In this document: positions 7,579-47,642 of the stretch, one piece after another
Numbering within the stretch: position 1 is the first letter of the stretch
Layout of the letters: each line of letters begins with the position of its first letter
DNA from: Clostridiales bacterium UBA1775
Lineage (GTDB): Bacteria > Bacillota > Clostridia > Monoglobales > Firm-18
Direction: 5' to 3'
DNA length: 64,000 bases
Assembly: GCA_002314595.1 (NCBI GenBank)
Contig: DCGP01000017.1
Span: 23,879-87,878 of the forward strand
Notes under the pieces: model-generated
The model's database searches: none
Seen by the model: the letters and a program-made list of their open reading frames with translations, nothing else
What the model was told of the DNA's origin: nothing
Made by a program: the position numbers and the translations under genes

Positions 7579-7642
7579 ATTTTCACCTCCTAATAAATTA
7601 TATCCAAAAATTTCTGTCATAAAACTTTTATTTTGAAAAATC

Positions 7643-7669: not shown

Positions 7670-7688
7670 TTGAATTACAAATATTATT

Positions 7689-8411: not shown

Positions 8412-8416
8412 AATAA

Positions 8417-9214
8417 TTATCTTCCTGCTCTATAACTAATATATGTATCTGTATATTTGTATTTCTTTTTGTACTTATATGTATTTGTAACTTCTGCAAC
8501 ACCATTTAGAATAATGCCCAAAGGCTTAATGTTTGCAATTTCAAACTTTGCCATTGTCATATCAAGTGCTTGGAACTCTGTATAATTTGCCCTTACAACT
8601 AACAAATAGCCTGTAACAAATGAAGATAGTACCAATGAATCTGATACAACATTAACAGGTGGTGTATCTATAATGATAAAGTCATACTTGCTTTCATATT
8701 CCGAAACAAATGCTTCCATAGCATCTGAACTTAACAGTTCCATTGGGTTCGGTGGAATATGACCTGATGTAACAACATCTAAATTTTCACGAATATTTTT
8801 ATGAACAAATTCGTGGTTATCGTCATCAAACACGTTTGATAACACATTTGATAAACCTACTTTGTTTGATAGGTTAAACAATTTATGAATTTTTGGCTTA
8901 CGAAGGTCCCCGTCAACAAGCAAAACTTTTTTGCCTGTTTGTGCAAATGTGATAGCAATGTTTACAGAATTTGTAGTTTTGCCTTCACTTGGGAAAGAAC
9001 TTGTAACAACGAACTTTCTGCAACCTGTGCCTCTTGAAGTAAACAAGATGTTTGTACGTAAGTCCTTGTATGCTTCGATAATATTAAAGTTTGTACCTTC
9101 TGCTAAAATTGTGTTGTCAAAGCTTAATGTTTCAAATGACGACTTTCTTTTGCCAACGAAGCCAAGCTTTTTAACGGAGGTCTTGTTTGTTTTTTCTTTA
9201 CTTTTTTGGTTCAT
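8417..9214 (-). CDS. BY-kinase, cytoplasmic ATPase subunit (CpsD/CapB/YwqD type)
   Basis: Walker A SSFPSEGKTT, Walker A' VDGDLRKP and Walker B IIIDTPP. The C-terminal tail is Tyr-rich (YKYKKKYKYTDTYISY), which is the autophosphorylation cluster. Confidence 0.85.
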   Translation of the reverse strand: MNQKSKEKTNKTSVKKLGFVGKRKSSFETLSFDNTILAEGTNFNIIEAYKDLRTNILFTSRGTGCRKFVVTSSFPSEGKTTNSVNIAITFAQTGKKVLLVDGDLRKPKIHKLFNLSNKVGLSNVLSNVFDDDNHEFVHKNIRENLDVVTSGHIPPNPMELLSSDAMEAFVSEYESKYDFIIIDTPPVNVVSDSLVLSSFVTGYLLVVRANYTEFQALDMTMAKFEIANIKPLGIILNGVAEVTNTYKYKKKYKYTDTYISYRAGR

Positions 9215-9960
9215 TATTTTTTACCTCCTTTTTTTGCTGTGTTATAATCCATTTCATCAATGTCCGGAATAGTACCTATTACAGCAATATTCATTTTCTT
9301 TTCAACGTTGTATTTCTTTTCAATGTCCTCAACAGACTTAATTTTAACATCAAAGAAATTAACTAAGAATAGTCCTGCAATTGAAAGGAATGCGCCAAGC
9401 AACATACCGATAAATGTTGACTTTGTAACATTTGGGTATGAATGAGTAAGCGGTAATGTTGCATCGTCTATTGTCTTAACAGAACCAACCTCGGCTACGT
9501 CCATAATTGTGATATTAGCACACTCTAAAATAGCTTTACACAAGTCTTGCGCTTCCTTTGGAGATTGTGCTGTAACATTAACCTCGATAATAATTGAGTC
9601 TTCAACACTATTATATACAACCATATTCCTAAGTTGGTCTGTTGTATATGTAAAATCTGTATGCTTTCTAACTGTATTAAAGAAATTATTTGTTTTTAAG
9701 ATAGCAACATACGTTTCAACAAGCTTTTCAGATGTTGTTAAGTCCACAAGATTTGCAGTGTTATTTTGATCTTGGGGAGAAACAATTTGCTGAGCCTTAT
9801 TATTTACGTAAACAGAACCATAAGAAGTATATTTTTTAGGTACGAAATTATTATTATAAACAAAAAATGCAATGCCAAATGCAAAAACTGCAATTACTAT
9901 TACCCACCAGCTTCTTAGTATGTCTTCGATAAGTTCTTTAATATTTATTTCCTTTTCCAT
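9214..9960 (-). CDS. Wzz/CpsC-type chain-length determinant / BY-kinase membrane activator
   Basis: Two TM helices flank a periplasm-like loop. It overlaps the cpsD start by 1 nt (TAATG). Start set to the ATG at 9960, 5 nt after AGGTGG, rather than the GTG at 9969. Confidence 0.8.
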   Translation of the reverse strand: MEKEINIKELIEDILRSWWVIVIAVFAFGIAFFVYNNNFVPKKYTSYGSVYVNNKAQQIVSPQDQNNTANLVDLTTSEKLVETYVAILKTNNFFNTVRKHTDFTYTTDQLRNMVVYNSVEDSIIIEVNVTAQSPKEAQDLCKAILECANITIMDVAEVGSVKTIDDATLPLTHSYPNVTKSTFIGMLLGAFLSIAGLFLVNFFDVKIKSVEDIEKKYNVEKKMNIAVIGTIPDIDEMDYNTAKKGGKK

Positions 9961-9997
9961 AAGAGCCACCTACTTTTCATTAAAATTCGACCATATT

Positions 9998-16925: not shown

Positions 16926-16945
16926 AATTTATGGAGGATTTGAGG

Positions 16946-19900
16946 ATGAAAAAAATAGGATTATATGCAATAATCAGCGTTTTGTTTTTAATATCATTTA
17001 CTATTCAAGTTTTTGCGGAAGAAAACTGTCATAGTATGATTAACGAATGGTATGGAAATGAGACTATTGCAAACAGTATTCCAAAAACTGTAAAGGAATA
17101 CTTTGATGTAAGAAAAAATTCTTTAATTGATTCTTCTCTATTTACAAGTAATTATGCAAGTGAAAAAGTACAAAAAAATGAAAATGAGCGTCGTGTAAAA
17201 ATACTTGAAATGCAATGTAGAATGAATATTAATATAGTAGATGTAGATAAACATATACAAGTATTGGAAACAAAGGTGGAAAATTCAAACACAATATTAA
17301 CTATTAAGGAATGGTTTTTCTATGATTACGATGATTTAGATGTTGAAGGGTTTAAAATTAACACAGCCGGATTTGGTACAACTCACACTTTAATTATAGA
17401 TAAGAATGATACTATTATTGATGACTTATACGATGAATCAGAAACCACAGGTATAATTACAACAGAAAGTAAAAATACTAATTTAATTAGTAAAAATATG
17501 TCAAGTTCAATAGAAAATATAGAAGAATCAAATATAAGCTTAATGAGCACCAATTTTTATTCAAGTTATAATGTTGATGCTGTTGTCACATATGCTGATA
17601 AATATTGGCAAAATTATAATACTAACTTTGCAAACTATAATCCGTATGGTGGTGATTGCACAAATTTCACATCACAATGTATTCTTGCAGGAGGAATGCC
17701 ACAAGTGTTATGTAGTAGTGGTATGACAAATGGATGGTATTATAATTCAACAAATGACCGTAGCGGTACATGGACAGTTGCTGGATACCTTAGAAATTGG
17801 ATGGCAAACAACCGAGGTGTCTTAGTAAATAATCCATCACCTTCGCAAATATACAAAGGTAGTCCTGTATTTTATAGCAGTAATGGTGGTAGTACATGGG
17901 CTCATGCTACAATTTGTGTCGGAACAAATTCAGAAGGGACTCCAATAATTGATTCTCATAATAATGATTACTATCATACAAAATGGAATTACTGGGGGAG
18001 TTCTACAACATACAGTACTGTGCAGTTGACACCGAGTAATAATTATACCAATATTCCAGCTATACAACGTGTGGTATGCACTACCAACGACGCTTCAAAC
18101 ATAGGAAATCACTCAGCAACACTTTCCGGTCATTTTACAAATCCGGGCGGTGCAAAAATTGTAAAGAGAGGTTTTCAATGGAGTACAACAACCGATATGA
18201 CACATTATACTATGTTTGATTGCAATATTACATGGGAAGATGGATTGACACATAATCAAACAACATTTTCTCCAAATACCACTTATTATTATAAATTTGT
18301 TGTTCAAGGCGAAGATGGAACATATGTATATGGGAATATGAAAAGTCTCACAACAGGACCATTTGGAAATATGACAGTTACTACAAATGATGCATATAAT
18401 ATAAAAACCAACTCTGCAACATTTAGTGGTAGTTTTTCTAATCCAAATGGTTTTGATGTGAAAAAAAGAGGATTTGTAATAGGTACTTCTTCTAATAATT
18501 TAAATTGGGAAATTATTTTCGATTGTGATATCACATGGAGTGATGGATTGACACATACCCAACCAGGACTTAAAGCTGGTACTACATATTATTACAAATT
18601 TGTTATTGGTGACGGAAATGGAAATTATAAATATGGCGGTTTGAAGAGCTTCACAACAAGAACAGCATTAGACACCGTTACAGTTACAACAAAAGACGCT
18701 TATAATATAACATCAAATTCGGCCACTTTTCATGGAAGTTTTGAACCCGGTGATTATACAATTAAAAAACGAGGATATGTTATTGGGACGGATTCAAATA
18801 ATTTAAATTGGGAAATTATTTTCAATTGTGATATCACATGGAGTGATGGCTTAACTCATACACAGCCAGGTCTTCAACCAGGAACAACATACTACTACAG
18901 GATGGTTGTGGGAGATGGAAATGGGAATTATAAATATGGCGGATTGAAATCTTTTACTACAGCTTGTAATAATCTCTCCGGACTGTACGCTATTAGACAT
19001 GTTGCAACAGGGAAGTATATTACTATGGGAAATAATGATATTGAGGGGAATCCTACGACATTAGTTGAACCAAGGTATAGCGGAGCTTTAGACACCGATC
19101 AACAATTATATTTCGAGTTGTTGTCTAATGGCGCATATAAGATTACTTCAAAAAGAAATGGATACGCATTTGAGGTAGGAGGACTTAGTAAAGATAATGC
19201 TGCTGTAGTTCAACAATGGGGATATGGAGGGATTTCCAGTCAACAGTGGTACGTATTTCGAAGGAATGACGGATATTATAAACTTGTTAATGTTAATTCA
19301 AGAAAGGCATTAGATATTGGGTCTAAAGTTCAACAATATGAGGATAATAATGCAGATGCACAAAAGTTTGAAATTATTCCGTTAACGTACGAAATCATAT
19401 ATAATGCTAATGGTGGAACAGGTGCACCAGATACACAATATAAAGTTTATAACCAAAACTTAACTTTATGCAATTCTATTTTAACCCGTCCAGGATATGT
19501 TTTCTGGGGATGGGCGGACAATGTTCAAAATGCAGAAAATGCAACATATCCAGCAGGCGGAACATTTACCGGAAACTATAGCACTACATTATATGCTGTT
19601 TGGAAAAAAGCTACCTATACCAATCATGTTCAATATTGGACTTGGGGATACAAAAATGGTGAAGGTGACAATACAGATAAAAACGCATTTTTCGTTGGAG
19701 AATATTCGTGGAATGGTGCCTTTAGCGATAGCCAAACATTTACAGAAAATATGACGAAGGAAATTCGTGGATTTAATTATCAAAAGAAATTGGTTTCTCC
19801 AACATTTACAGGTGAGTGGATTTCGTATTCTTTACCTTATACTTTTAGTCAACCAGCACAAGATGTATGGGCAAATATTGACTATGTTCCTACAGCGTAT

Positions 19901-20434
19901 GAAATAAGGTATGAATTAGATGGTGGAGTTAACAATAATGATAATCCAACTGAATATAATATTCTTTATGGAGTGAAATTCAAAGAACCGACAAAAGAAG
20001 GCTATGTTTTTAAAGGTTGGAAGGATAAAAATGGAAACGATATTGCTGGAGTTAACGAAAACTGTAATGCTTCATTTACAAGTGTTGATGATTTTTATAA
20101 TGCAGTAAATTCGAGAACTATTGGTGAAATAACTGTAAAGGCAGATTGGGAACCCATAACACCTTATACGGAATCCGTAGTTTCAGAAGCTAATAACACC
20201 TATGCTATATCAACCGATTTTATCAACATCACATCAGGCAAAATCATTGTTGCCGGATATAAAGATAATAAATTAGTTAACTTTGTTATAAGAGATTATT
20301 CACAGGAAAATGAAAGCTTTGAACTAAGTGGCGATATTGACACCATCAAGGTTATGGTATGGGATGGGCTTAACACCTTAGTGCATCTTACATCAGCGGA
20401 AGTTATTCCACAAAGTAGCTGGGCGACTGAGTAA
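16946..20434 (+). CDS. Secreted multidomain protein: amidase-like domain, 3 tandem Ig/Fn3-like modules, ricin-type lectin, Listeria-Bacteroides repeats
   Basis: Signal peptide MKKIGLYAIISVLFLISFTIQVFAEE. YADKYW...NYNPYGGDCTNFTSQCILAGG resembles the 'putative amidase domain' (Amidase_6) Cys motif. Three ~97-aa repeats. QQW/QKF beta-trefoil motifs (SQQWYVFRR, AQKFEI). Two Flg_new-type repeats (YNANGGTGAP...GYVFWGW; YELDGG...GYVFKGW). Start set to ATG 16946 after GGAGG. Confidence 0.85.
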   Translation: MKKIGLYAIISVLFLISFTIQVFAEENCHSMINEWYGNETIANSIPKTVKEYFDVRKNSLIDSSLFTSNYASEKVQKNENERRVKILEMQCRMNINIVDVDKHIQVLETKVENSNTILTIKEWFFYDYDDLDVEGFKINTAGFGTTHTLIIDKNDTIIDDLYDESETTGIITTESKNTNLISKNMSSSIENIEESNISLMSTNFYSSYNVDAVVTYADKYWQNYNTNFANYNPYGGDCTNFTSQCILAGGMPQVLCSSGMTNGWYYNSTNDRSGTWTVAGYLRNWMANNRGVLVNNPSPSQIYKGSPVFYSSNGGSTWAHATICVGTNSEGTPIIDSHNNDYYHTKWNYWGSSTTYSTVQLTPSNNYTNIPAIQRVVCTTNDASNIGNHSATLSGHFTNPGGAKIVKRGFQWSTTTDMTHYTMFDCNITWEDGLTHNQTTFSPNTTYYYKFVVQGEDGTYVYGNMKSLTTGPFGNMTVTTNDAYNIKTNSATFSGSFSNPNGFDVKKRGFVIGTSSNNLNWEIIFDCDITWSDGLTHTQPGLKAGTTYYYKFVIGDGNGNYKYGGLKSFTTRTALDTVTVTTKDAYNITSNSATFHGSFEPGDYTIKKRGYVIGTDSNNLNWEIIFNCDITWSDGLTHTQPGLQPGTTYYYRMVVGDGNGNYKYGGLKSFTTACNNLSGLYAIRHVATGKYITMGNNDIEGNPTTLVEPRYSGALDTDQQLYFELLSNGAYKITSKRNGYAFEVGGLSKDNAAVVQQWGYGGISSQQWYVFRRNDGYYKLVNVNSRKALDIGSKVQQYEDNNADAQKFEIIPLTYEIIYNANGGTGAPDTQYKVYNQNLTLCNSILTRPGYVFWGWADNVQNAENATYPAGGTFTGNYSTTLYAVWKKATYTNHVQYWTWGYKNGEGDNTDKNAFFVGEYSWNGAFSDSQTFTENMTKEIRGFNYQKKLVSPTFTGEWISYSLPYTFSQPAQDVWANIDYVPTAYEIRYELDGGVNNNDNPTEYNILYGVKFKEPTKEGYVFKGWKDKNGNDIAGVNENCNASFTSVDDFYNAVNSRTIGEITVKADWEPITPYTESVVSEANNTYAISTDFINITSGKIIVAGYKDNKLVNFVIRDYSQENESFELSGDIDTIKVMVWDGLNTLVHLTSAEVIPQSSWATE
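18071..18963 (+). repeat. Three tandem ~97-codon intragenic repeats (units 2 and 3 spaced exactly 300 nt apart)
   Basis: Units begin VVCTTNDASNI / MTVTTNDAYNI / VTVTTKDAYNI and end KSLTT / KSFTT / KSFTT. Units 2 and 3 share long identical DNA stretches (for example aataatttaaattgggaaattattttc at 18494 and 18794). Confidence 0.75.
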
Positions 20435-20560: not shown

Positions 20561-20603
20561 AAGGACAAGTGTTTTGATACCAAAATGCTTGTCCTTTTTT
20601 TAT
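20561..20603 (+). terminator. Second, stronger orphan terminator
   Basis: 16-bp stem AAGGACAAGTGTTTTG-atac-CAAAATGCTTGTCCTT (two G-U) followed by TTTTTTT. There is no ORF between it and the previous terminator. Confidence 0.55.
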
Positions 20604-20735: not shown

Positions 20736-20764
20736 TTTACTTTTTTTATGAAATATGATATAAT
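20736..20764 (+). promoter_or_regulatory. Putative promoter of the NRPS operon
   Basis: TTTACT - 17 nt - TATAAT with extended TG (TGaTATAAT), 54 nt upstream of the ATG at 20818 (SD AAGGAG). Confidence 0.45.
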
Positions 20765-20817: not shown

Positions 20818-23800
20818 ATGGATAGATTTAAAGATACAAAAAAAGAGTCTATGTTAACAGACAGTCAATTTGGCATTTACCTTGAATGTATTGATGAAAA
20901 TAATTGTGCAGACTACTTATTGCCTATTTCTTTTGTTTTTCAAAAGGGAAAAATTGATGCAGTAAAATTGTCCGACGCATTTGATAAAGTGGCAAATACT
21001 TATTCGGCTTTTTCGACTGTTATCAAAACGGTTAATTCCGAGCCTATTATGACCATTTATGATAAGGAATTGCCAAAACTAAAAGTTAGAAAAATCTCTG
21101 AAAACGATGTCAAAACAAGAAAGATGGAGCTATTTAAGCCATTTTCCTTTAACGGAGAGCTTTTGTGGAGAGGCGAAATCCTTGAAACCGAAAACGATAT
21201 TATATTTTTGCTGATTATCCATCACAATATCTTTGACGGAACATCAATGGCAGTATTAAATAATGCCCTTGCACTTGCCTATGAGGGAAAGGACTTGTCG
21301 GAGGAAGGCACAGTTTTTGATGCAAAAAAAGCAGAAGATGATATGGTTGACAACGGAATTTCAAAAGAATCAATGGATTTTTATGACGAATATTTAGACG
21401 GTATTGAAACCGACTCAAACATAATTCCCGATATGCCACAGGTCAATACCTCAAAAATGGCAGTTGTTGATGTTGCTTGTGAAATACCAATGGATAAAAT
21501 CACAGCCTTTGCAAAGGAAAATTCAGTAACTGAGAATATTGTATTTTTAAGTGCATTTGCCTATACTCTTTGCAAGGTAAATGGTCAAAAAGATGCGCTT
21601 TTCTCCTCAGTTGAAAGTGGACGATTTGGTGGAGGATACAATAATTCGATAGGTATGTTTGTAAAGTCTTTTCCAATCCGAATAAATTATGACGAGGAAA
21701 TTGCGTCCTTTGATTTCGTTAAGGGAGTTAAAACAAACTTTTTTAATACGCTATCACATAATCACATAAAATTTTCTGATTTAATTCAAAATTATTCAGG
21801 AATTGCAGATGTTAGATACATATACCAAGGCGAAATGTTTAAGGGCATTGCAGTTGGTGGTGTTGCTCCTCGCATAGATGTGCTTGATACCTATGAGCCT
21901 GTGTCCAATTTTGACTTTATGGTATACAAAATTGACAACACATTCAGAATATGGTTGGGATATAAATGCACAATGTATACAAGGGAACTAATTGAGCATT
22001 TTGCAGATATGTTTTTTTGTGTTTTAAACGGAATGTTAGACGGCAAAAAACTTGGGGATATTTCCTTTGTATCACAAAAGGGTATGGAGGAATTAGACAA
22101 AATCAATAATACAAAGTTTACCTATGACGAGGGGTTGACGGTAAACAGTATTTTTGAAGAAGCAACCGAGAAATATCCCAATAACATCGCTGTTTTATAC
22201 AAGGATAAAAAGCTGACATACAGTGAGCTTAATACTCAAATCAACAAAGTGGCAACATATGTTTCACAAAAAGGAATAGGCAAAAATGAATTTGTATCGG
22301 TTTTAATTCCAAGAAACGAATTTATGCCAATAACAGCAATGGGAATAATTAAGGCAGGTGCAGGTTATCAGCCTCTTGACCCCACATATCCAAAGGACAG
22401 GCTTGACTTTATGGTATCGGACAGCAAGTCAAAACTTTTGATTGCCGACCGAAGCTTAATAGGATTGTTGTCAGAGTACAAGGGCGATATACTATATACC
22501 GATGAAATTGATAATATTTCCGAAATGCCTTTTAAAACAGACGTAAAACCTGACAACGCATTTGTTTTGATATATACATCGGGCACAACAGGTACGCCAA
22601 AGGGGTGTATTATTGAAAACAAAAATATAGTAGCGCTGTATTTTAATCATAAAAAATTAGTTGAATTGTCGCCTAATTCAAAAGTTGCAACCATTGCAAG
22701 TTTTGGATTTGACGCAGCAGTTATGGATATTTTTACAACGCTTATGGTAGGCGCAACTCTTTATATTATTCCGGATGAAATCAAATTGGATATTCCCGAA
22801 GTAGAAAAAATATACATAGAAAACGGCATAACAAATGGTTTTATGACAACGCAACTGGGACGAATGTTTTTGGAACAAACAAAATGCAAGACACTAAAAC
22901 ATTTCGTTTTAGGGGGAGAAAAGCTTGTGCCATTCACACCACCTGCTTGGGTTCAATGTCATAACTGCTATGGCCCAAGCGAAACAATAGCCTACGTTAC
23001 AGGCTATACCATAAAAGATGACAGTTCGATGCAGCCTATAGGAAAATTAAGCATAAATACAAAGGCATATATTGTAGATTCTACAAACAGGTTGCTTCCT
23101 ATCGGTGCTTGCGGTGAACTTTGTATTGCAGGCTTGCAAGTGGGTAGGGGTTATTTTGAACGCCCTGAAAAGACTGCAGAAGTGTTTGTTAAAAATCCAT
23201 TTTCTAACGAATGTGGTTATGACAGAATATATAAAACAGGCGATGTAGTAAGATTATTGCCCGATGGAAATTTAGACTTTATCGGTCGTCGAGACGGACA
23301 GGTGAAAATTCGTGGATTTAGAATTGAGCTAACAGAGGTTGAACAGGTTATAAGAAGTTTTGACGGCATTAAAAATGCTACTGTTCAAACCTATGATGAT
23401 GCAGTTTCGGGTAAATTTATTGCTGCCTTTATTGTGGCTGACAGCAAGATTGACATTGACAAATTAAACAAATATATTATGAGTCAAAAGCCTGCATATA
23501 TGGTGCCGGCAGTTACCATGCAGATAGATAACATTCCGGTCAATGCAAACGCAAAGGTTGATAAGAAAAAATTGCCAAAGCCGGAGTATAGTTTTGGTGA
23601 AATTGTCGCACCTCAAAACAACACGCAACAAGATATTTTTGATATAGTTACATCAGTTATCGGAACAACTGCAATAAGCATTGATACCGATTTGTATCTT
23701 GCAGGTCTTTCTTCGATAGGTAGTATTAAACTATGTTCACTTTTAGCAGAGAAATTTAATATAACTATTCAAATGAAGGATTTAAAGCAAAACAATACCA

Positions 23801-26800
23801 TAGTAAAACTCGAGACGTTTGTGGATACAGCCGGACAAAATGCTGAGTTTGAACGTACAATACTTGACGATTATCCATTAACTAAAACACAAGAGGGTAT
23901 TTTTGTTGAATGTATATCAAAGCCTGAAAGTACAGTCTACAATATCCCAATTTTGTTAAAACTTTCGGATAAGCTTGATATAAATAAGTTAAAATCGGCA
24001 ATAGTTAGTGCAGTTTCAGCTCATCCCTACATTAAAACAGAGCTATTTACCGATGAAAACGGAACTGTTCGTCAAAAGAAAATGGACGATGCTCATTTTG
24101 ATGTTGACAGTATTGACAATATAAACGAAGAAATAGACAGCATAAAAGAAACATTGATACAACCCTTTGAGCTGTTAAATTCAAGACTGTTTAGGGTAAA
24201 GATAATTAAAGATTCCTATTTGTTCTTGGAATTTCATCACATTATTCTTGACGGAACGAGCATTAACCTATTTCTACGTGATATTGAAAAGGCATATTGT
24301 GGTGAGGAGCTCCAAGAAGAACGTTATAATAGTTTTGACTTGTCATATAACGAGGAGCAAAAAAGAAAAACATCAGCACTTGATGAGGCTAAAAAACACT
24401 ACGACAATATTTTAGATGGACTTGATATGAACTTCTTGCCTGAGCCGGACAGACTTATGTCGGCAAAAAAGGATAGTGGAAGCCTTTTGATGAGTCAAAT
24501 GTTACCTTCTGTTGATAAGGTTTTGGAATATTGTAACAAGAACAATATAGGTATAAACGGCTTTTTGTCCGGTGTATTTGGGTTTGTGCTTGCAAAATAT
24601 GCAGGAACTGAATACTCTGTTTTCAACACAATTTATAATGGTCGAAACGATTCCAGGGCAATGACAACTATCGGTATGCTTGTAAAAACAATTCCTGTTG
24701 TTTGCAATATCGAAAAGGAAAATTCAGCAGATATAGCAAAGGCTGTTTCATCACAAATTATAGACAGTATGACAAATGACCTATATTCCTTTGCAGAAAT
24801 CTGTAATGAGTATGGCGTTAGAAACGATATTGTTTTTGTATACCAAGGAGACGACTTTGAGTTTAATACCTTCTGTGGTGAAACGGTTAGCGAGGTACAT
24901 CTTGAATTATCCGAATCAAAGGCACCCATTGCCTTTGAGGTTTCAATCGTAAATGGTAAATTTAATTATAAGGTTGACTATAATGCCGAAATATTTACCG
25001 AAAAACTAATACAGACCTTAGTATGTGCTTTTGATAAAGCTATTTATTCCTTTGTTAATGGCGAAAAGGTAAGTGAAATTTCCCTTTTGACTGATGAAAT
25101 CACTAAGGAACTTGATAAATATAACGAAACCGAATTCGTATATGATACATCTAAAACTATTATTGACCACTATATAGAGCAAGTGAAGTTGAACCCTGAT
25201 AGGAAATGTGTTGTATACAAAGATAAAACATACACCTACAAAGAGGCCAATGATTTATCACGAAAGGTTTCATCCCATTTGATTTCAAGTGGAATAAACA
25301 AGGGTGATATTGTCGCAATTTTAATAAACCGTGATGAAAATATGATTCTTGCGTCCTATGGTGTTATTATGTCAGGATGTGCTTATGTAGGACTTGACCC
25401 AACATATCCAAAGGATAGGCTTGACCTTATGATTACCGATAGTGGAGCAAAGGCGTTGATTGCCGACCGAAGCCTAATGGGACTTATAAGTAAACCTGAC
25501 TGTAAAATCATATATACCGATGAATTTGAAGCCTTGCCAACCAACGATGATGTTGTAGACCAAAGAATCAGCGAAATAACACCGAATGACAGATGTTTGG
25601 TAATATATTCATCAGGAACGACAGGAGTGCCAAAGGGTGCAGTTTTGTGCCATAAAAACGTTGTTAGTTTCTATTACAATTATACAAATGATATGGATAT
25701 TAAGGTAGGCTCTTGTGTTGCAACCTATGCAAGCTTTGGGTTTGACGGAGGTGCACAAGATGTGTTCTGTTGCCCTATGTCAGGGGCAAGTTTGTACGTT
25801 ATTCCTGATGATATTAGGCTTGATATGGACAAGCTTGAACAATTCTATATCCAAAACAAAATAACAAGTGGATTTATGACAACACAAGTTGGTGCAATGT
25901 TTGTAAACAATACAAAGTGCCGTACACTACGCAACTTCTTAGTTGGTGGAGAAAAGCTTATTCCTGCAATTCCACCTGCTTGGACAAACTTTATGAATGG
26001 TTACGGTCCCAGCGAAACTATGTGTTATGTAAACAAATACCATGTTGCAGATACAGGAAATCTTCAACCAATCGGAAAGACAAGCAAGAATGTTAAAGAA
26101 TACATAATTGATAAGTACGGAAACAGACTTCCCTTTGGTGCTTGTGGTGAGCTTTGTATTTCAGGTGGTCAAACAGGTATGGGTTATCTGAACAGACCTG
26201 AAAAAACAGCACAATCATTTGTAAAAAATCCGTTCTGCAACCTTGAACCTTATGACAGAATGTATAAAACCGGCGATATTGCAAGGATAATGCCTGACGG
26301 AAATTATGTATTTGTAGGCAGACGGGACGGCCAGGTTAAGATTCGAGGATTTAGAGTTGAACTTTCGGAAATCGAACAACAAATAAGAAAATTTGACGGA
26401 ATAACAAATGCCACTGTTGAAGCATTTGATAGTAGCACAGGTGGAAAATTCCTTGCTGCTTACATTGTAGCAAATAAAGAAATTGACATTGCAAAATTAA
26501 ATGAATTTATAGCATCGGAAAAGCCTGACTATATGGTGCCTGCCGTAACAATGCGACTTGACGAAATACCACTTACTTCAAATGGTAAGGTAGACAAGAA
26601 AAAACTTCCTAAGCCGACCCCAACAACAAGAAAGGGAATTGAGCCTGCAAACGAAACGGAAGAAACTATTTGCGATATTTTTGAAGAGGTTTTAGGACTT
26701 GAAAAAGTATATGCCGATGATGATTTCTTTGCAATAGGTGGTTCATCTATCTCGGCAATCCAAGTTGTTGTAAAATGTAATAACGCAGGGTATAGCATAG

Positions 26801-28077
26801 TATTTAAAAATCTATTTTCAAACCCTACACCTCACGGATTATGTGAGTTTATTCACGGAGGACGTGATACAAAAGTATTTGCTCCTGATGATAAAGAAGC
26901 AGACAAATATGATTACAGTGCTTTAAAATACAACACAGTGGACTATGTAAACGAAATTACCTCAGGAGAAATAGGCGATGTTCTTTTGACAGGCGTTACA
27001 GGATTTTTAGGTAGCCATATTTTAAAGGAATTGATTGAAAACACAAGTGGAAACGTCATTTGTTTGGTTAGAGCAAAGGGCGATATGAGTGGTGAAACAA
27101 GATTCCAAATGATGATGACCTACTATTTTGAAGATTGGTTTACCGATGAAATGAAAAAACGTGTTACTGTGATTGAAGGCGAGCTGGGCGACGAAGGTAT
27201 TTTGGAAAAAGTTAAGGATTGCCATTTTGACACTATTATCAACAGTGCTGCAAATGTAAAGCATTTCGCAGCAGGCGATGAATTATTAAAGGATAACTTT
27301 ACGGGTGTTGGGAATATGGTTGCTCTTGCAGAAGAAAAGAATGCGTTATTTGTGCAAATTTCTTCAACAAGTGTCAGTGGTGAAGCCGTTGAGGGTGGAG
27401 TTTCAGACGATTTCTTGTTTAGAGAATGCGACCTAAACATTGGTCAATCCCTTGAAAATAAGTATATTTTTTCAAAATATCAAGCAGAACAACTTGTTAT
27501 TGATGCAATTTCAAAGGGGAAAATTAGGGGCAAGGTAATTCGTTTAGGCAACCTTATGGCAAGAGAGAATGACAGCGAATTCCAAATAAATGCCGGTTCA
27601 AACGGATTCTTAAAACAATTTTCCGGTTATAAAAAACTTGCAATGTTCCCTGTTGATTTGATGGATAAGCATATTGAATTTTCTCCCATAGATTCGACGG
27701 CAAAGGCAATAGTGTTGTTATCGGGAACTCCTGACAAGTTTACCGTATTCCACGCAAAAAACTGCAACTCTATACATTACGGATACTTTATTAACGCAAT
27801 GATTAGCAAGGGAATAAATATAAATATTGTGCCTAATGAGGTTTTTACAAAGCGATATAAGCAAGCACTAAATGAGGAAACGGACATTTCGGATTTTACA
27901 TCATTTATTGCATATATGAGCAATGCAAACAGCGATAAAGTTATGCACCAAATTGAATCAAGTGCAGATTTTACCACAAAGGCGTTATACAGACTTGGCT
28001 TTGCTTGGCCGTTAATAAGTAGCAAATATTTAGAGGAAATGGTTAAAACACTAATTGATTTAAGCTTTTTCTCATAA
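20818..28077 (+). CDS. Dimodular non-ribosomal peptide synthetase, C-A-T-C-A-T-R (terminal thioester reductase)
   Basis: Motifs read directly. C1 HHNIFDG (nt ~21220). A1 LIYTSGTTGTPKG / NCYGPSE / GRRDGQVKIRGFRIEL / NAKVDKKKLP. T1 LAGLSSIGS (~23700). C2 HHIILDG (~24235). A2 VIYSSGTTGVPKG / NGYGPSE / GRRDGQVKIRGFRVEL / NGKVDKKKLP. T2 FAIGGSSIS (~26740). Reductase Rossmann LLTGVTGFLGSHIL (~26985) and Y-x3-K (YIFSK). No TE domain. Confidence 0.95.
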   Translation: MDRFKDTKKESMLTDSQFGIYLECIDENNCADYLLPISFVFQKGKIDAVKLSDAFDKVANTYSAFSTVIKTVNSEPIMTIYDKELPKLKVRKISENDVKTRKMELFKPFSFNGELLWRGEILETENDIIFLLIIHHNIFDGTSMAVLNNALALAYEGKDLSEEGTVFDAKKAEDDMVDNGISKESMDFYDEYLDGIETDSNIIPDMPQVNTSKMAVVDVACEIPMDKITAFAKENSVTENIVFLSAFAYTLCKVNGQKDALFSSVESGRFGGGYNNSIGMFVKSFPIRINYDEEIASFDFVKGVKTNFFNTLSHNHIKFSDLIQNYSGIADVRYIYQGEMFKGIAVGGVAPRIDVLDTYEPVSNFDFMVYKIDNTFRIWLGYKCTMYTRELIEHFADMFFCVLNGMLDGKKLGDISFVSQKGMEELDKINNTKFTYDEGLTVNSIFEEATEKYPNNIAVLYKDKKLTYSELNTQINKVATYVSQKGIGKNEFVSVLIPRNEFMPITAMGIIKAGAGYQPLDPTYPKDRLDFMVSDSKSKLLIADRSLIGLLSEYKGDILYTDEIDNISEMPFKTDVKPDNAFVLIYTSGTTGTPKGCIIENKNIVALYFNHKKLVELSPNSKVATIASFGFDAAVMDIFTTLMVGATLYIIPDEIKLDIPEVEKIYIENGITNGFMTTQLGRMFLEQTKCKTLKHFVLGGEKLVPFTPPAWVQCHNCYGPSETIAYVTGYTIKDDSSMQPIGKLSINTKAYIVDSTNRLLPIGACGELCIAGLQVGRGYFERPEKTAEVFVKNPFSNECGYDRIYKTGDVVRLLPDGNLDFIGRRDGQVKIRGFRIELTEVEQVIRSFDGIKNATVQTYDDAVSGKFIAAFIVADSKIDIDKLNKYIMSQKPAYMVPAVTMQIDNIPVNANAKVDKKKLPKPEYSFGEIVAPQNNTQQDIFDIVTSVIGTTAISIDTDLYLAGLSSIGSIKLCSLLAEKFNITIQMKDLKQNNTIVKLETFVDTAGQNAEFERTILDDYPLTKTQEGIFVECISKPESTVYNIPILLKLSDKLDINKLKSAIVSAVSAHPYIKTELFTDENGTVRQKKMDDAHFDVDSIDNINEEIDSIKETLIQPFELLNSRLFRVKIIKDSYLFLEFHHIILDGTSINLFLRDIEKAYCGEELQEERYNSFDLSYNEEQKRKTSALDEAKKHYDNILDGLDMNFLPEPDRLMSAKKDSGSLLMSQMLPSVDKVLEYCNKNNIGINGFLSGVFGFVLAKYAGTEYSVFNTIYNGRNDSRAMTTIGMLVKTIPVVCNIEKENSADIAKAVSSQIIDSMTNDLYSFAEICNEYGVRNDIVFVYQGDDFEFNTFCGETVSEVHLELSESKAPIAFEVSIVNGKFNYKVDYNAEIFTEKLIQTLVCAFDKAIYSFVNGEKVSEISLLTDEITKELDKYNETEFVYDTSKTIIDHYIEQVKLNPDRKCVVYKDKTYTYKEANDLSRKVSSHLISSGINKGDIVAILINRDENMILASYGVIMSGCAYVGLDPTYPKDRLDLMITDSGAKALIADRSLMGLISKPDCKIIYTDEFEALPTNDDVVDQRISEITPNDRCLVIYSSGTTGVPKGAVLCHKNVVSFYYNYTNDMDIKVGSCVATYASFGFDGGAQDVFCCPMSGASLYVIPDDIRLDMDKLEQFYIQNKITSGFMTTQVGAMFVNNTKCRTLRNFLVGGEKLIPAIPPAWTNFMNGYGPSETMCYVNKYHVADTGNLQPIGKTSKNVKEYIIDKYGNRLPFGACGELCISGGQTGMGYLNRPEKTAQSFVKNPFCNLEPYDRMYKTGDIARIMPDGNYVFVGRRDGQVKIRGFRVELSEIEQQIRKFDGITNATVEAFDSSTGGKFLAAYIVANKEIDIAKLNEFIASEKPDYMVPAVTMRLDEIPLTSNGKVDKKKLPKPTPTTRKGIEPANETEETICDIFEEVLGLEKVYADDDFFAIGGSSISAIQVVVKCNNAGYSIVFKNLFSNPTPHGLCEFIHGGRDTKVFAPDDKEADKYDYSALKYNTVDYVNEITSGEIGDVLLTGVTGFLGSHILKELIENTSGNVICLVRAKGDMSGETRFQMMMTYYFEDWFTDEMKKRVTVIEGELGDEGILEKVKDCHFDTIINSAANVKHFAAGDELLKDNFTGVGNMVALAEEKNALFVQISSTSVSGEAVEGGVSDDFLFRECDLNIGQSLENKYIFSKYQAEQLVIDAISKGKIRGKVIRLGNLMARENDSEFQINAGSNGFLKQFSGYKKLAMFPVDLMDKHIEFSPIDSTAKAIVLLSGTPDKFTVFHAKNCNSIHYGYFINAMISKGININIVPNEVFTKRYKQALNEETDISDFTSFIAYMSNANSDKVMHQIESSADFTTKALYRLGFAWPLISSKYLEEMVKTLIDLSFFS

Positions 28078-28093: not shown

Positions 28094-28390
28094 ATGAATA
28101 TTGAAGTAAAAAAAGAAAACGGAAACACTGTGATTTGCCTAAACACAAGGCTTGACTCGACCACTGCCGGTGAATTAGATGAAGTAATTCAAAAAGAAGT
28201 GCAGGCTGTTGAAAACAATATGATAGTTGACTTGAAAAATGTTGATTTTGTATCATCTATCGGACTTCGTGTGCTTGTTTCTGCTTACAAGTCACTAGAC
28301 GGAAAGCAGATGATAATAAAAAATGCAAACAGTTCGATAATAGAGGTGTTAAAGCTATCCGGATTGTTATCTCTGTTTACAGTTGAGTAG
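28094..28390 (+). CDS. STAS-domain protein (anti-sigma-factor antagonist, SpoIIAA/RsbV type)
   Basis: 98 aa. DLKNVDFVSSIGLRVLV aligns with SpoIIAA LEDLSFMDSSGLGVIL, so the phospho-acceptor Ser (S54/S55, nt 28253-28258) is present. C-terminal LKLSGL motif. SD AGGAAGG, 16 nt after the NRPS stop. Confidence 0.85.
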   Translation: MNIEVKKENGNTVICLNTRLDSTTAGELDEVIQKEVQAVENNMIVDLKNVDFVSSIGLRVLVSAYKSLDGKQMIIKNANSSIIEVLKLSGLLSLFTVE

Positions 28391-28399
28391 GGTAACGTT

Positions 28400-30169
28400 A
28401 TGGAAAACAAAAAGAAAAGTATCGAATATACGAGAAATGAACGAACAACAAATAAAGTAGTAGCATTCTTTTTGCTTCTCTTCGTTGCAATGACTATCGT
28501 AAACGAGTTTATTCTAACAGTTGACTATGCAACAAACTTGGATTATGCAAACAAGTATGTATATTTTCCAATAAGCATTGTCTTAGTCTGCATTTTTGCG
28601 ATTGCATGGATATATAATTTTGAGGCATATTGGCTAAAACACGTACTGATGGGTGGACTTATTTTAGTGTCCATTATTGTGTTCTTTGTGTTTACAACCT
28701 ACGCATTGTATTCTGTCTTTATACCACTAATTATTGCAACACGATATTTTAATAAAAAAATGATTTACACAGTCTCTATAATTACCGGGGTGTTGTTTGT
28801 TGTTGCATGTATATTAAATGTCACACTGGAATCTGTTTCGGAAACAATTCAAATATTTCACCAAAATGTTGTATATAACATTTGGCAAAGTTATCTTGAC
28901 GCCATTGTTTATATAGCAATTCCTTGCCTTTTGGTTATGGTATTCATGTTAATTTTCGGAATAAATTTAACCAAAAGTGGAAGAAATTTGCTAATGGAAC
29001 AAATAGATAATAATAAAAAGATTGCATCAGTTGACGCCGAGCTTGAAATGGCAGCCAAAATACAAAAAAGCGTTCTTCCAAAGCCATATTTTCAAACGGA
29101 AAATAAAAACTTTACTTTGTCGGCATTTGAAACTCCGGCAAAGGAGGTTTGTGGAGATTTTTTTGACTATTTCATGGCAGGGGAAAACAGCATGGCGATA
29201 TTGGTTGCAGATGTGTCCGACAAAGGTGTTCCTGCAGCAATGTTTATGATGTCTGCCAAAAAGGTAATGCAATGCGCGATTGAAAGCTGCGATACATTAG
29301 ACGATGCCATTGAGCTTGCTAACAAACTAATATGCAACGACAACCAATACGGAATGTTCTTGACATTGTGGATGGGTGTAATAAATGTCAAAAGTGGTGT
29401 AGGAAAATATGTAAATGCAGGTCATCCATACCCCATTATAAAACACGCAGATGGCAGTGTTGAGTTTATTGAAAATGAACCCGATTTATTTCTTGGCAAT
29501 TTCCCAAAAAAGAACCCGAAAGTCAATACCTTTGTTATGAAGCCTGATGACGTGCTTTTTATTTACACTGATGGTTTGACTGACTCAATGAATCAGAAAA
29601 GGGAATGTTTTGGTATTAAAAGAGTTATTAACCAAATAGAGCAAAGTGAAAATGATGCTGAAAAGCTGGCCAAGTCTGTAATCGAGTCAGTAAAAGAGTT
29701 TTCAAAGGAAAGTGTTCAATTTGACGATATAACAACGCTTTGTCTAAAATGCAACAAAATTGATGAGCCGGATTTTGCAAGTTGTAAGATTACTAGTGGA
29801 ACAGAAGGCACTAAAATAATCAATGACAAAATTCAAGAGATGTTAATAAATGCAAAATGTCCTGATGAAAAGCGTCGCAATATTGGTGTAGTAGTTGATG
29901 AAATTTGCGCAAACATCAACGAACACGGCTATCACGAAAACGGAGAAATTGAAGTTAACGCACTTGTTGGAGATAATTATGCTAAAATCCAATTTTTAGA
30001 CAACGGCAAAGCCTTTAATCCTCTTGAAAAAACCGACCCGATTATAACCGACGAACCACAAATAGGTGGGTTGGGAATTTATTTTGTAAAGCAACTTTCC
30101 GACAACTTTTCCTATGAATATGTTGACGGAAAAAACAAACAGACAGTGTTATTTATATGGAATATGTAA
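28400..30169 (+). CDS. Membrane-anchored PP2C (SpoIIE/RsbU-type) phosphatase fused to an RsbW/SpoIIAB-type HATPase kinase domain
   Basis: About 5-6 TM helices (aa ~20-195). PPM motifs VCGDFFDYF, ILVADVSDKGVPAAMFM, IYTDGLTDS, FDDITTLCL. C-terminal GHKL ATPase N-box VVVDEICANINEHGY, G1 FLDNGKAFNP and G2 GGLGIYFVKQL. Starts 9 nt after the STAS stop. Confidence 0.85.
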   Translation: MENKKKSIEYTRNERTTNKVVAFFLLLFVAMTIVNEFILTVDYATNLDYANKYVYFPISIVLVCIFAIAWIYNFEAYWLKHVLMGGLILVSIIVFFVFTTYALYSVFIPLIIATRYFNKKMIYTVSIITGVLFVVACILNVTLESVSETIQIFHQNVVYNIWQSYLDAIVYIAIPCLLVMVFMLIFGINLTKSGRNLLMEQIDNNKKIASVDAELEMAAKIQKSVLPKPYFQTENKNFTLSAFETPAKEVCGDFFDYFMAGENSMAILVADVSDKGVPAAMFMMSAKKVMQCAIESCDTLDDAIELANKLICNDNQYGMFLTLWMGVINVKSGVGKYVNAGHPYPIIKHADGSVEFIENEPDLFLGNFPKKNPKVNTFVMKPDDVLFIYTDGLTDSMNQKRECFGIKRVINQIEQSENDAEKLAKSVIESVKEFSKESVQFDDITTLCLKCNKIDEPDFASCKITSGTEGTKIINDKIQEMLINAKCPDEKRRNIGVVVDEICANINEHGYHENGEIEVNALVGDNYAKIQFLDNGKAFNPLEKTDPIITDEPQIGGLGIYFVKQLSDNFSYEYVDGKNKQTVLFIWNM

Positions 30170-30214: not shown

Positions 30215-30260
30215 AAAAACGACTAACATTTAGTTAGTCGTTTTGTAGTTTATTTAAAAT
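30215..30260 (+). repeat. 46-bp direct repeat, copy A (contains terminator hairpin 30216-30244)
   Basis: AAAAACGACTAACATTTAGTTAGTCGTTTTGTAGTTTATTTAAAAT is identical to 33209-33254. The hairpin AAAACGACTAAC-attta-GTTAGTCGTTTT ends the NRPS operon. Confidence 0.9.
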
Positions 30261-34652: not shown

Positions 34653-36031
34653 TTATAGTGTTACTCCGTCTTTAAATATAGATATTTCTTCAAAACCGTT
34701 TATTTCATTTTTTGTCTTTTTGCCCGATGCAATATCTATAATAAAATCTAATAAATTATCTGCTAAATCATCTAATGAAATTCCGTCTAATATAGGTGAT
34801 GAGTCAAAATCTATCCAATGTGCTTTTTTGGTAGCAAGAGCTTTGTTGGTAGATATTTTAACCGTAGGCACTGTACTGCCAAGAGGCGTACCTCTGCCTG
34901 TGGTAAACAATATTATATGTACCCCTGATGCCATAAGGTTGGTTACGGCAACCATGTCATTGCCGGGCCCGTTAAGCAAGGATAATCCGTTTTTTGATAC
35001 AGTATCACCATAGTTAAGCACATCTACAACATTAGCAAGTCCTCCCTTTTGCACACATCCTAAGGACTTTTCTTCCAATGTGGTAATTCCTCCTTTTTTG
35101 TTGCCGGGCGATGGGTTTTCATATATTACCTGATTATGAAGTCTGTAATAATCTTTGAAGTTGTTAATAAGGTCAACTGTTTTGTCAAAAACCTTTTTGT
35201 TTTTGCATCTTTCCATTAAAAGATGCTCTGCGCCAAACATTTCCGGTACCTCGGTTAGAACACAGCTTCCTCCAAAGGATATAACCTTATCTGAAAGCTT
35301 GCCAACCAACGGATTGGCGCTAATACCACTAAACCCATCACTGCCACCACATTTCAAGCCAATACGCAAATGTGAGATATTTATAGGCTTTCTTTCAAAT
35401 GTGCTTGCGTATGCTTTTAGTTCATTTATTAGCTCTATACCCTTTGCAATTTCATCTTCCTCATCTTGGCAATTTAGAAACTTAACTCTTTTTTCTTGGT
35501 AATCACCAAGTATTTTTTAAATTCATCAATATTATTATTTTCACAGCCAAGGCCAAGTACAAGCACACCACCGGCGTTAGGGTGGTTAACCATACCCTTT
35601 AATATCAGTTGTGTTGTGGTTTGGTCGTCCCCAAGCTGTGAGCAACCAAATGGGTGAGGAAAACACTTTGCCCCTGTCTCTTGGGCAAGCTTTTGTGCAA
35701 CCTTATTTACACAGCCCACAGTATTTACTATCCATACGTCATTGCGAATACCAACATCCCCATTTTCTCTCACATATCCCATAAATGTTCTGTCGCTTTT
35801 ACAATACTCTATTCCATAATCCTTATAGTTGTATGTATATTGCAAATTATCCGATAAATTAGTTTTAATATTGTGGGTGTGAACGTGTTCACCTTTTTTT
35901 ATATCGCATATTGCATGGCCTATGGGGTAGCCGTATTTTATAATATTTTCACCACGTTTGATGTTACATACGGCATACTTGTGTCCGTTATCAAGGTTAA
36001 CCTCTACATTATCTCTTTCACTAATCAACAT
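34653..36031 (-). pseudogene. uxaA: Altronate dehydratase interrupted by a -1 nt frameshift near 35506-35509
   Basis: ORF 35474..36031 gives the SAF domain plus ...GLGCENNNIDEFKKYL and then stops. Shifting one base continues GDYQEKRVKFLNCQDEEDEIAKGIELINELKAYASTFERKPINISHLRIGLKCGGSDGFSG into ORF 34653..35369. TACTTGGTGAT would read TAC TTN GGT GAT with one extra base. Confidence 0.75.
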
Positions 36032-47126: not shown

Positions 47127-47642
47127 ATGGATTTAATACCAAGTTTTCAAGTAGACCACACAAAGATTGTGGCAGGAATTTATGAATCAAGGGTAGATAC
47201 ATTGGGTACAGAATACGCCACTACATTTGACATTAGAATGAAAGTGCCAAACAAAGAGCCTGCAATTCACTCCAACGCTATGCACACAATAGAGCATATT
47301 GTTGCAACATTCCTGCGCAACGATAAAGAGTGGAAGGATAAAATTATCTATTGGGGACCAATGGGTTGCCTAACAGGTTGCTATTTAATTGTTAAAGGTC
47401 GTCCTACACCAAAGGAAATATTGCCTCTTATGATTAGAGCCTTTGAATACTGTGCAAAATATGACGATGTTGTGCCCGGTGCAAACGCCGTAAACTGTGG
47501 CAACTACATTTTGCACGACCTTAATATGGCAAAATATGAGGCCCGAAAATACTGTGAAATACTAAAAAATAATCCTTGCTTTGAATATCCGACAGAGCAA
47601 AGAATTAAAACAGAAAAAGGACAAATATTTTACGATTCCTAA
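47127..47642 (+). CDS. luxS: S-ribosylhomocysteine lyase
   Basis: HTIEHIVATFLRN (H-x-x-E-H metal site) and the GC.TGCY Cys motif. 171 aa. Confidence 0.95.
   Translation: MDLIPSFQVDHTKIVAGIYESRVDTLGTEYATTFDIRMKVPNKEPAIHSNAMHTIEHIVATFLRNDKEWKDKIIYWGPMGCLTGCYLIVKGRPTPKEILPLMIRAFEYCAKYDDVVPGANAVNCGNYILHDLNMAKYEARKYCEILKNNPCFEYPTEQRIKTEKGQIFYDS

Follow-up and report, generated by a model that had tools for sequence, protein, structure and literature searches.

Several proteins are known in which a PP2C-type phosphatase and an RsbW-type serine kinase share one polypeptide. CrsR of Shewanella oneidensis and HsbR of Pseudomonas aeruginosa (PA3346) have the domain order REC, PP2C, kinase/anti-sigma, and they both phosphorylate and dephosphorylate an adjacent STAS protein, CrsA or HsbA, depending on the state of the input domain (PMC6482189). 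The kinase/anti-sigma domain of either protein binds RpoS, and HsbA has in addition two targets which are not sigma factors, namely HsbD and FlgM (PMC6482189). A catalogue of bifunctional PP2C-kinase proteins exists for Campylobacterota as well (PMC9239204). Here we describe a gene for a protein of this kind, called the fusion below, in a 64,000-nucleotide stretch of DNA from Clostridiales bacterium UBA1775 (contig DCGP01000017.1, positions 23,879 to 87,878), called the window. The fusion consists of a membrane domain with six predicted transmembrane (TM) helices, a PP2C phosphatase domain and an RsbW-type kinase domain; together with a neighbouring STAS gene it makes up the last two genes of what looks like a three-gene operon headed by a nonribosomal peptide synthetase (NRPS) gene. 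We consider it probable that the fusion is a membrane-anchored bifunctional kinase/phosphatase which acts on the adjacent STAS protein and serves as a dedicated accessory of the co-transcribed NRPS.

Proteins built like the fusion are numerous. Of the 8,000 candidates scored in a homologue search, 5,304 reached E<=1e-5, and the Pfam domains PF07228 and PF13581 occurred together in 120 of the 120 best relatives. The N-terminal sensors of such relatives were HAMP, dCache, Cache3-Cache2, 5TMR-LYT or ECF-S-like domains, or none that could be recognised, and their database names read "SpoIIE family protein phosphatase" or "ATP-binding SpoIIE family protein phosphatase". Judged from these sequences, the PP2C-kinase architecture is common and the swapping of input domains is the family's normal variation. 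A preliminary description of this DNA had called fused kinase/phosphatase proteins not well understood, a claim which does not hold for a group with more than 5,300 relatives, an established database name and two characterised members in CrsR and HsbR. The fusion alone adds little, as proteins of the input-PP2C-kinase type acting on STAS partners are abundant and include studied examples. More interesting are, on one hand, a six-helix sensor which has not been described previously and, on the other hand, the membership of a conserved NRPS-associated partner-switching module that reaches the abundant human-gut genus Blautia.

Enzyme domains, STAS partner and membrane domain of the fusion

The central part of the fusion matched the SpoIIE model PF07228 with an E-value of 1.3e-43 and 149.6 bits over profile positions 2-191 of 192, and its C-terminal part matched HATPase_c_2 (PF13581) with an E-value of 5.3e-17 and 62.5 bits, the curated Pfam cut-offs of the two models being 25 and 27.4 bits. 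Judged by their E-values, these domain matches and those of the STAS protein (coordinates and scores in Table 1) lie far beyond chance. All four Asp-containing blocks of the PP2C family were found, namely G252-D253, D271-VSDKG276, T390-D391-G392 and D442-D443. A phmmer alignment to SpoIIE (5MQH) placed D253, D271, D391 and D443 on D610, D628, D746 and D795, which are the metal (Mn2+) ligands of that enzyme (PMC3517971). We aligned 67 full-length relatives, with identity down to 24%, and found G252, D253, D271, V272, S273, K275, G276, T390, D391, G392, D442 and D443 to be invariant. The metal-binding loop reads DVSDKG in this clade, vs DVSGKG in the wider family; the clade-specific residue, D274 (29219-29221), occupies no ligand position and is invariant in 20 sequences, that is the NRPS-linked clade and its nearest relatives.

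As for the kinase domain, its N-box (E501/N505), G1 (D534-x-G536) and G2 (G556-G557-x-G559) all align with those of RsbW (6M36), the stretches in question being, for the fusion and RsbW respectively, VDEICANINEHGY and VSEACTNAVQHAY, LDNGKAF and ADEGDSF, and GGLGIYF and GGLGLYL. N505, D534, G557 and G559 are invariant among the same 67 relatives, and E501, G536 and G556 are conserved in at least 90% of them. The preliminary description had recognised the four phosphatase blocks as well as the boxes of RsbW/SpoIIAB type; on proper alignment to 5MQH and 6M36 no catalytic residue is lost, and both predicted active sites are intact and under conservation.

Among the NCBIfam models, the fusion gave partial and sub-threshold matches to SiaA, RssB, RsbW and SpoIIAB only, those to RsbW and SpoIIAB being far under the equivalog cut-offs; we therefore do not regard it as an orthologue of any named regulator. 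Its full-length AlphaFold model (pLDDT, the predicted local distance difference test, 91.3; pTM, the predicted template modelling score, 0.71) had as its best Foldseek match in the PDB the structure 3KE6, which comprises the RsbU and RsbW parts of Rv1364c (E 1.6e-18). The same structure was the best solved relative in phmmer (E 2.7e-12, at an identity of only about 20%), so that the analogy with Rv1364c drawn in the preliminary description is borne out by sequence and by fold. The PPM fold of the model also matches SiaA-PP2C (6K4E, target TM-score 0.82), RssB (3F79), SpoIIE (5UCG) and RsbX (3W40).

The STAS protein consists of a single domain of the anti-sigma-antagonist type. Its phospho-acceptor serine had been placed at nucleotides 28253-28258, and these encode the pair S54-S55, of which S55 (codon 28256-28258) stands at the acceptor position: its counterparts in the alignment are the first Ser of DSSG in Geobacillus SpoIIAA (1TH8) and the Ser of DSAG in TM1442, which we take to be the phosphorylated serines of those proteins. 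S54, S55, G57, L58 and R59 are invariant in 8 STAS orthologues that are 41-65% identical to the one in the window. In every locus of the clade sharing this TM domain that we examined (L001-L013), a STAS gene adjoins the gene for the fusion.

Hydrophobic stretches by the Kyte-Doolittle scale lie within residues 16-194 of the fusion, and an AlphaFold model of residues 1-205 alone (pLDDT 89.6) has six helices (8-41, 45-71, 79-97, 103-114, 119-144 and 165-204), which narrows the earlier estimate of five to six. We prefer six helices because nearly all Lys and Arg residues, found in the N-terminal end or within loops 72-80, 115-120 and 191-195, then share a side with the enzyme domains, and because a kinase that uses ATP must be cytoplasmic. 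The model fits an N-in/C-in topology with the PP2C and kinase domains in the cytoplasm. With about 12, 5 and 20 residues the loops on the extracytoplasmic side are very short, and the signal may therefore be sensed within or at the membrane. Residues 1-200 had no match to any Pfam or NCBIfam model, and Foldseek found no PDB analogue of the TM-only model (best E about 1). Kinship with the S components of ECF transporters was suspected, and it was not supported by the Foldseek comparison with the PDB.

Seventeen relatives supplied a profile of the N-terminal ~205 residues, and its search against 1.84 billion representative proteins gave 464 clusters (50% identity) at E<=1e-3 and 166 at E<=1e-10. 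The family falls into two length classes, proteins of ~580-630 residues with TM, PP2C and kinase domains and proteins of ~445-490 residues with TM and PP2C domains only, the latter build being confirmed in 7 of 7 sampled proteins. The six-helix domain is thus, as far as such profile matches tell, a portable sensor which is mainly paired with PP2C outputs, and the same sensor type was seen again in the NRPS-linked fusions L094-L102. A hybrid histidine kinase of 1,392 residues (P0227; GAF-PAS-HisKA-HATPase_c-REC) opens with the first ~150 residues of the same domain, i.e. its first four helices, and PP2C outputs are therefore not the only ones served by this sensor. The N-terminal tail of the domain carries a motif with the consensus Y-x-E-N-E-x-x-T-N-K, here YTRNERTTNK (residues 10-19, 28427-28456); across relatives down to 30% identity, N13 and N18 do not vary and E14 is retained in at least 90%. 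Other conserved positions of the sensor are K80, P109, Y116, H154 and P175.

The sixth helix is continued in the model as one long helix into the PP2C domain, and this helix is likely to be a signal-transmitting linker. In SpoIIE and RsbU an alpha1/alpha2 switch positions the metal cofactor and sets the activity (PMC11418112); helices 277-296 and 300-313 of the fusion lie at the position of this switch.

The cassette with the peptide synthetase gene

The NRPS operon context, overlooked in the preliminary description, is the most informative feature of the locus. The gap between the NRPS and STAS genes is 16 nt long and holds the ribosome-binding site of the latter, AAAGGAAGG, and the start of the fusion lies 9 nt past the STAS stop codon. 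With such short gaps, one promoter-like site 54 nt before the NRPS start and terminator-like hairpins on both flanks, the three genes look like one operon; the genes around it are housekeeping genes. In all four distinct closest loci (the window, P0003, P0005 and P0011) the order NRPS-STAS-fusion is identical, and so is the domain string of the NRPS, C-A-T-C-A-T-R (condensation, adenylation, thiolation and terminal reductase domains). The fusions of the other three loci are 53%, 50% and 47% identical to that of the window, respectively, and the flanks of the four cassettes are wholly unrelated, one locus having a phosphopantetheinyl transferase (PPTase) gene directly downstream. Divergence follows the same rank order in every part (65/61/59% identity for the NRPS, 66/63/55% for STAS, 57/54/53% for the PP2C-kinase part and 47/42/34% for the TM domain), as expected of a unit that has been inherited or moved together. 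The best full-length relatives in a scan of GTDB came from Fibrobacter metagenome-assembled genomes (34-37% identity).

The association was also examined in the reverse direction. An alignment of the thiolation-reductase (T-R) end of the NRPS (480 residues) led to 80 metagenomic loci with 37-56% identity, which were dereplicated at 90% identity to 41 clusters, 35 of them with at least 1.5 kb of downstream sequence. Just downstream and on the same strand, 27 of these 35 NRPS relatives have a gene for a STAS, PP2C, RsbW-type or MatE-kinase protein, and partner-switch parts were found in 30 of the 30 raw loci that extend 5 kb or more beyond the NRPS on its downstream side. In 21 of the latter a STAS gene lies within 500 nt of the NRPS stop codon; no other gene accompanies NRPSs of this family as constantly as STAS. 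The partner-switching module, above all its STAS protein, is a near-constant feature of reductase-terminated dimodular NRPS genes from Clostridia of the rumen and the human gut. No sigma factor gene was found in any of the NRPS-linked cluster variants sampled.

The composition of the module varies. The arrangement NRPS-STAS-PPTase occurs in Blautia faecis, Blautia wexlerae, Suilimivivens, Ruminococcus sp. AF37-6AT and Eubacterium sp. 14-2, names that were obtained by exact-sequence look-up of the STAS proteins, several of which have been seen on at least 1,000 contigs. The window NRPS shares only 37-40% identity with these Blautia-type clusters in the T-R region, and we presume that the clusters are those of the primary studies (Guo 2017; Schneider and Balskus 2018). 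In four of them (L118, with STAS at 7469-7771 and PPTase at 8000-8635, and likewise L145, L166 and L138) the NRPS, STAS and PPTase genes are followed by nusG, rplK and rplA, and no PP2C or kinase gene was found within 6 kb. Other loci have NRPS-STAS-[2TM/HAMP]-PP2C-kinase (L131, L105, L129), NRPS-[6TM]-PP2C-kinase-STAS (L094, L095, L097, L128) or NRPS-[MatE-kinase fusion]-PP2C-kinase-STAS (L136; the same parts in another order in L141).

The MatE-kinase proteins, about 580-600 residues long, are MATE (MatE) efflux transporters with a C-terminal RsbW-type HATPase_c_2 domain, an architecture which to our knowledge is not found in the literature. Their genes (L079:6515-8284, L077:6068-7822, L136:7435-9222, L103:4450-6180, L107:7464-9278 and L108:2725-4533) directly follow reductase-terminated NRPS genes, either 16-65 nt after the NRPS stop codon or overlapping it. 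STAS and TM-PP2C genes also flank a second kind of NRPS, which has about 990 residues and no domains beyond A-T-C; such loci (L074: 5036-6487, 6958-7251, 7268-10240; L079: 4927-6486, 8298-8591, 8600-11593; L061: 5746-8709, 9458-9733, 9791-11689) come from Lachnospiraceae, Ruminococcus and Saccharofermentans metagenome-assembled genomes. The closest metagenomic relative of the window NRPS (56% identity in T-R) has genes for an XRE-type regulator and primase-like proteins in place of the module (L092:7962-10399). We considered this locus as a counter-example and rejected it, as what looks like a mobile element of XRE/primase type has been inserted immediately behind the NRPS and accounts for the missing module.

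A possible phospho-switch and its alternatives

All predicted parts of a self-contained phospho-switch on S55 are present at this locus, intact, adjacent and conserved, and the switch is genetically tied to the NRPS. We propose that the C-terminal RsbW-type domain would phosphorylate Ser55 of the STAS protein at the expense of ATP and that the central PP2C domain would take the phosphate off again, in which case the two gene products would make up a partner-switching module of two components. The six-helix domain would be the input, most likely reading a membrane-borne or lipophilic cue; the cue would act through the long TM6-linker helix on the alpha1/alpha2 switch of the PP2C domain and shift the balance of the two activities. 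By analogy with CrsR/HsbR and with RsbU/SpoIIE, the membrane domain may thus bias the kinase-to-phosphatase ratio, and the output would be the fraction of unphosphorylated STAS. Most probably such a switch would tune the synthesis or export of the NRPS product, or respond to the product as feedback. Both activities on STAS, their gating by the TM domain and the link with NRPS function are what we infer from the arrangement. A signal-gated bifunctional switch on the adjacent STAS protein had already been suggested in the preliminary description, and the computational checks (motifs, the STAS serine, the 9-nt gap and the domain order of CrsR/HsbR) agree with that idea.

What the switch would act upon can be read in different ways: STAS may bind a sigma factor complex, the NRPS or an exporter, or some further target. 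It is possible, if not what we favour, that a sigma factor from elsewhere in the genome is also bound and held by the C-terminal domain and would be displaced by unphosphorylated STAS, so that the output would be transcriptional, with a regulon that might or might not include the NRPS operon. Such a reading would suit a kinase domain of RsbW/SpoIIAB type, whose equivalent in CrsR and HsbR is the part that binds RpoS (PMC6482189), and sequestration of a sigma factor is the classical logic of the family (PMC11418112). However, the Pfam scan of 30 open reading frames in the window found no sigma factor gene and no further STAS, PP2C or kinase gene, tblastn of the window showed no paralogues, and the cluster variants sampled lack a sigma factor gene as well; the earlier question of other STAS or sigma-B/F-like genes thereby has a negative answer for the part covered, the scanned open reading frames of the window. 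The operon promoter-like site also argues against this reading. We looked for an alternative-sigma promoter upstream of the NRPS and found only the sigma-70-type extended -10 site, and an alignment of this upstream region with three orthologous ones yielded no shared or alternative-sigma motif.

About as probable is a direct output: the STAS protein, according to its phosphorylation state, would bind the NRPS or a membrane exporter and gate synthesis or export, and the fusion would merely set the STAS state. In terms of gene context, the constancy of STAS close behind the NRPS speaks for this idea, as do its position between NRPS and PPTase in the four Blautia-type clusters which have no PP2C or kinase gene nearby, the RsbW-type domains attached to MATE exporters whose genes come right behind the NRPS gene (at least 5 verified loci), and the precedent of STAS proteins with targets other than sigma factors, such as HsbA (PMC6482189). 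Against it stands the lack of a MATE gene in the window operon. In its fuller form, which we put forward as a speculation of about the same standing, the exchanged partner would be the NRPS or the exporter, the six-helix domain would sense the lipophilic peptide-aldehyde product or the state of the membrane, and gating would be post-translational. If true, it would amount to a family-wide, previously uncharacterised control layer of prevalent gut-microbiome NRPS clusters, those of Blautia included.

We find it unlikely that the kinase-like domain is a non-catalytic docking domain, with the fusion acting as a regulated phosphatase and some other kinase phosphorylating STAS. About half of the TM-domain family does consist of shorter proteins with TM and SpoIIE domains only (~450-490 residues), and some clusters encode stand-alone or MATE-fused kinase domains, but the residues for ATP binding are conserved across the 67 relatives, which would not be expected of a dead domain. 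Least probable of all, and in our opinion very improbable, is that the adjacency to the NRPS is incidental and that we are dealing with a general envelope-stress or sporulation-type (SpoIIE/sigma-F-like) module. The Pfam name of the phosphatase domain, SpoIIE, might invite this interpretation, and distant members of the TM clade are not NRPS-linked. Yet the cassette is kept in all four close loci in spite of their different flanks, partner-switch parts accompany 27 of the 35 dereplicated NRPS relatives, and NCBIfam gave no equivalog match to RsbW, SpoIIAB or SpoIIAA at cut-offs; moreover, the fusion does not have the architecture of roughly 10 TM helices and an FtsZ-binding region, and it has a kinase domain which is absent from SpoIIE.

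Several observations weigh against the fusion being a dedicated, membrane-gated accessory of the NRPS. Two TM-clade relatives, P0012 (41% identity) and P0017 (35%), retain STAS and have no NRPS nearby, which shows that an NRPS is not an inherent companion of the sensor-enzyme pair. In the wider family an NRPS was found within 10 kb in only 5 of 80 GTDB loci (L012, L061, L074, L077 and L079). The promoter of the operon looks like a housekeeping one, with no hint of sigma-mediated autoregulation. The full-length model merges residues 79-116 into one helix which the TM-only model splits, and the six-helix topology is based on the latter model and on the distribution of charges. Finally, the link of the window NRPS to dipeptide aldehydes is indirect, as it rests on the 37-40% identity in T-R to Blautia-type clusters and on the products reported for such clusters by Guo in 2017.

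Characterised members of the gut NRPS family make protease-inhibiting dipeptide aldehydes, and we know of no account of how these reductase-terminated clusters are regulated. The linkage described here offers a concrete regulatory candidate, made up of one serine, two enzyme domains and one membrane sensor. Such clusters have been hard to express natively, and fixing STAS in one of its phospho-states might serve in practice to turn them on. In addition, the locus is a compact case for a partner switch with no sigma factor gene nearby.

Surroundings of the operon and comparison with known systems

Table 1. Position of the fusion, its domains and motifs, and the other operon features in the window
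Feature	Position	Strand	Remarks
Whole fusion gene (6-TM sensor, PP2C phosphatase, RsbW-type kinase)	28400..30169	+	single open reading frame, 589 aa, ATG start
N-terminal cytoplasmic tail and six-helix membrane domain (predicted)	28400..28996	+	aa 1-199
Cytoplasmic continuation of TM6, long helix 165-225 into PP2C (predicted)	28997..29182	+	DSSP on AlphaFold model
SpoIIE-type PP2C/PPM phosphatase domain	29183..29752	+	aa 262-451, Pfam
PP2C metal-ligand Asp codons	D253 29156-29158; D271 29210-29212		D253 just upstream of the Pfam envelope
Further PP2C metal-ligand Asp codons	D391 29570-29572; D442, D443 29723-29728		
RsbW/SpoIIAB-type GHKL Ser kinase domain	29825..30151	+	aa 476-584
GHKL motifs	N-box E501/N505 29900-29914; G1 D534/G536 29999-30007; G2 G556-G559 30065-30076		
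Single-domain STAS protein (anti-sigma-antagonist type)	28094..28390	+	98 aa; PF01740 E 3.4e-15; TIGR00377 62.5 bits, above cut-off
NRPS, C-A-T-C-A-T-R	20818..28077	+	2,419 aa; Pfam Condensation x2, AMP-binding x2, PP-binding x2, terminal NAD_binding_4 reductase
Terminator-like hairpin, 5' boundary of the operon	20561..20596	+	16-bp stem, then T-run; closes the upstream gene
Sigma-70-type promoter-like site	20736..20764	+	TTTACT, 17 nt, TG-n-TATAAT (extended -10); consensus match only
Terminator-like hairpin, 3' boundary of the operon	30216..30244	+	12-bp stem, T-rich tail; 47 nt past the fusion stop

Directly upstream of the operon (Table 1) lies a gene for a 1,167-residue protein with Amidase_6, RicinB lectin and Listeria-Bacteroides repeat (Flg_new) domains (16931-20434, + strand), which does not accompany the cassette in the orthologous loci. 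About 11 kb upstream there are capsule-type regulatory genes (7689-9969, - strand) for a CpsB/CapC phosphatase, an AAA_31 tyrosine-kinase-like ATPase and a Wzz chain-length protein, which are unconnected with the fusion. On the other side, an altronate/galactarate dehydratase gene (34653-36031, - strand) is split by a frameshift near 35,470 into two open reading frames of 185 and 238 codons and is either a pseudogene or an assembly error. A gene for LuxS (S-ribosylhomocysteinase, the autoinducer-2 synthase) is located at 47127-47642 (+ strand), 17 kb from the NRPS operon.

Among the described systems, CrsR and HsbR resemble the fusion in having input, PP2C and RsbW-type domains in this order in one chain, next to a gene for a single-domain STAS protein. 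They differ from it in being proteobacterial, in having a cytoplasmic REC input fed by a phosphorelay, where the fusion has a six-helix membrane input, and in not being NRPS-linked; Pfam found no Response_reg match in the fusion. Moreover, their kinase domain sequesters RpoS, whereas no sigma partner was found among the open reading frames scanned in the window or in the sampled clusters. By analogy, the fusion would thus work like the CrsR/HsbR type without being a strict member of it. The likeness to Rv1364c of Mycobacterium tuberculosis (3KE6) consists in a PP2C domain followed by a GHKL kinase domain in one chain. Rv1364c is a cytosolic protein that has a PAS domain at its N-terminus and its STAS domain fused to the C-terminus. 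The sensor of the fusion, on the contrary, is membrane-embedded and its STAS protein is encoded by a separate gene, so that only the RsbU-RsbW core is matched, and no PAS or STAS domain was found by Pfam in the fusion polypeptide. In SypE of Vibrio fischeri the order is RsbW-like kinase, REC, PP2C, and its output is not a sigma factor. Like the fusion, SypE is a serine kinase for a STAS protein, SypA (PMC10120452). In its other domain order, its cytoplasmic location and its role in the regulation of biofilm polysaccharide, it differs from the fusion.

The Bacillus partner switches, RsbU/RsbW/RsbV and SpoIIE/SpoIIAB/SpoIIAA, comprise the same three protein families with the same chemistry, but there the kinase and the phosphatase are separate proteins and the output is a sigma factor encoded in the same operon. 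SpoIIE of sporulation has roughly 10 TM helices, a central FtsZ-binding region and a PP2C domain, contains no kinase, and pairs with spoIIAA-AB-sigF. The fusion is unlike it, with 589 residues, six TM helices and a kinase domain; no sporulation-SpoIIE model was among its 6 NCBIfam matches, and no sigF-type operon was found among the open reading frames scanned in the window.

A link between switch genes of this sort and NRPS clusters has been noted before. In Methanobrevibacter ruminantium M1 the NRPS clusters mru0066-0071 and mru0512-0516 are linked with them, the second cluster comprising a PPTase, a phosphatase, an antagonist and an anti-sigma kinase, and Leahy et al. in 2010 proposed roles in environmental sensing and NRPS regulation (PMC2812497). 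This was the only report on a STAS/SpoIIE-NRPS link found in our literature search, which revealed no experimental follow-up. Unlike in the window, the components in M. ruminantium are separate proteins, the host is an archaeon (with a probable bacterial origin of the genes) and the terminal NRPS domain has been described as a thioesterase. As for the gut bacteria, reductase-terminated NRPSs reportedly give dipeptide aldehydes that have been isolated as pyrazinones, ruminopeptin being one example, although the ruminopeptin study was unable to obtain the predicted products from cultures (PMC12327764). Like these dimodular clusters of gut Clostridia, with synthetases of the type C-A-T-C-A-T-R or A-T-C-A-T-R, the NRPS of the window is reductase-terminated, and its relatives in Blautia faecis, Blautia wexlerae, Suilimivivens and Ruminococcus sp. 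are each followed, as it is itself, by a STAS gene.

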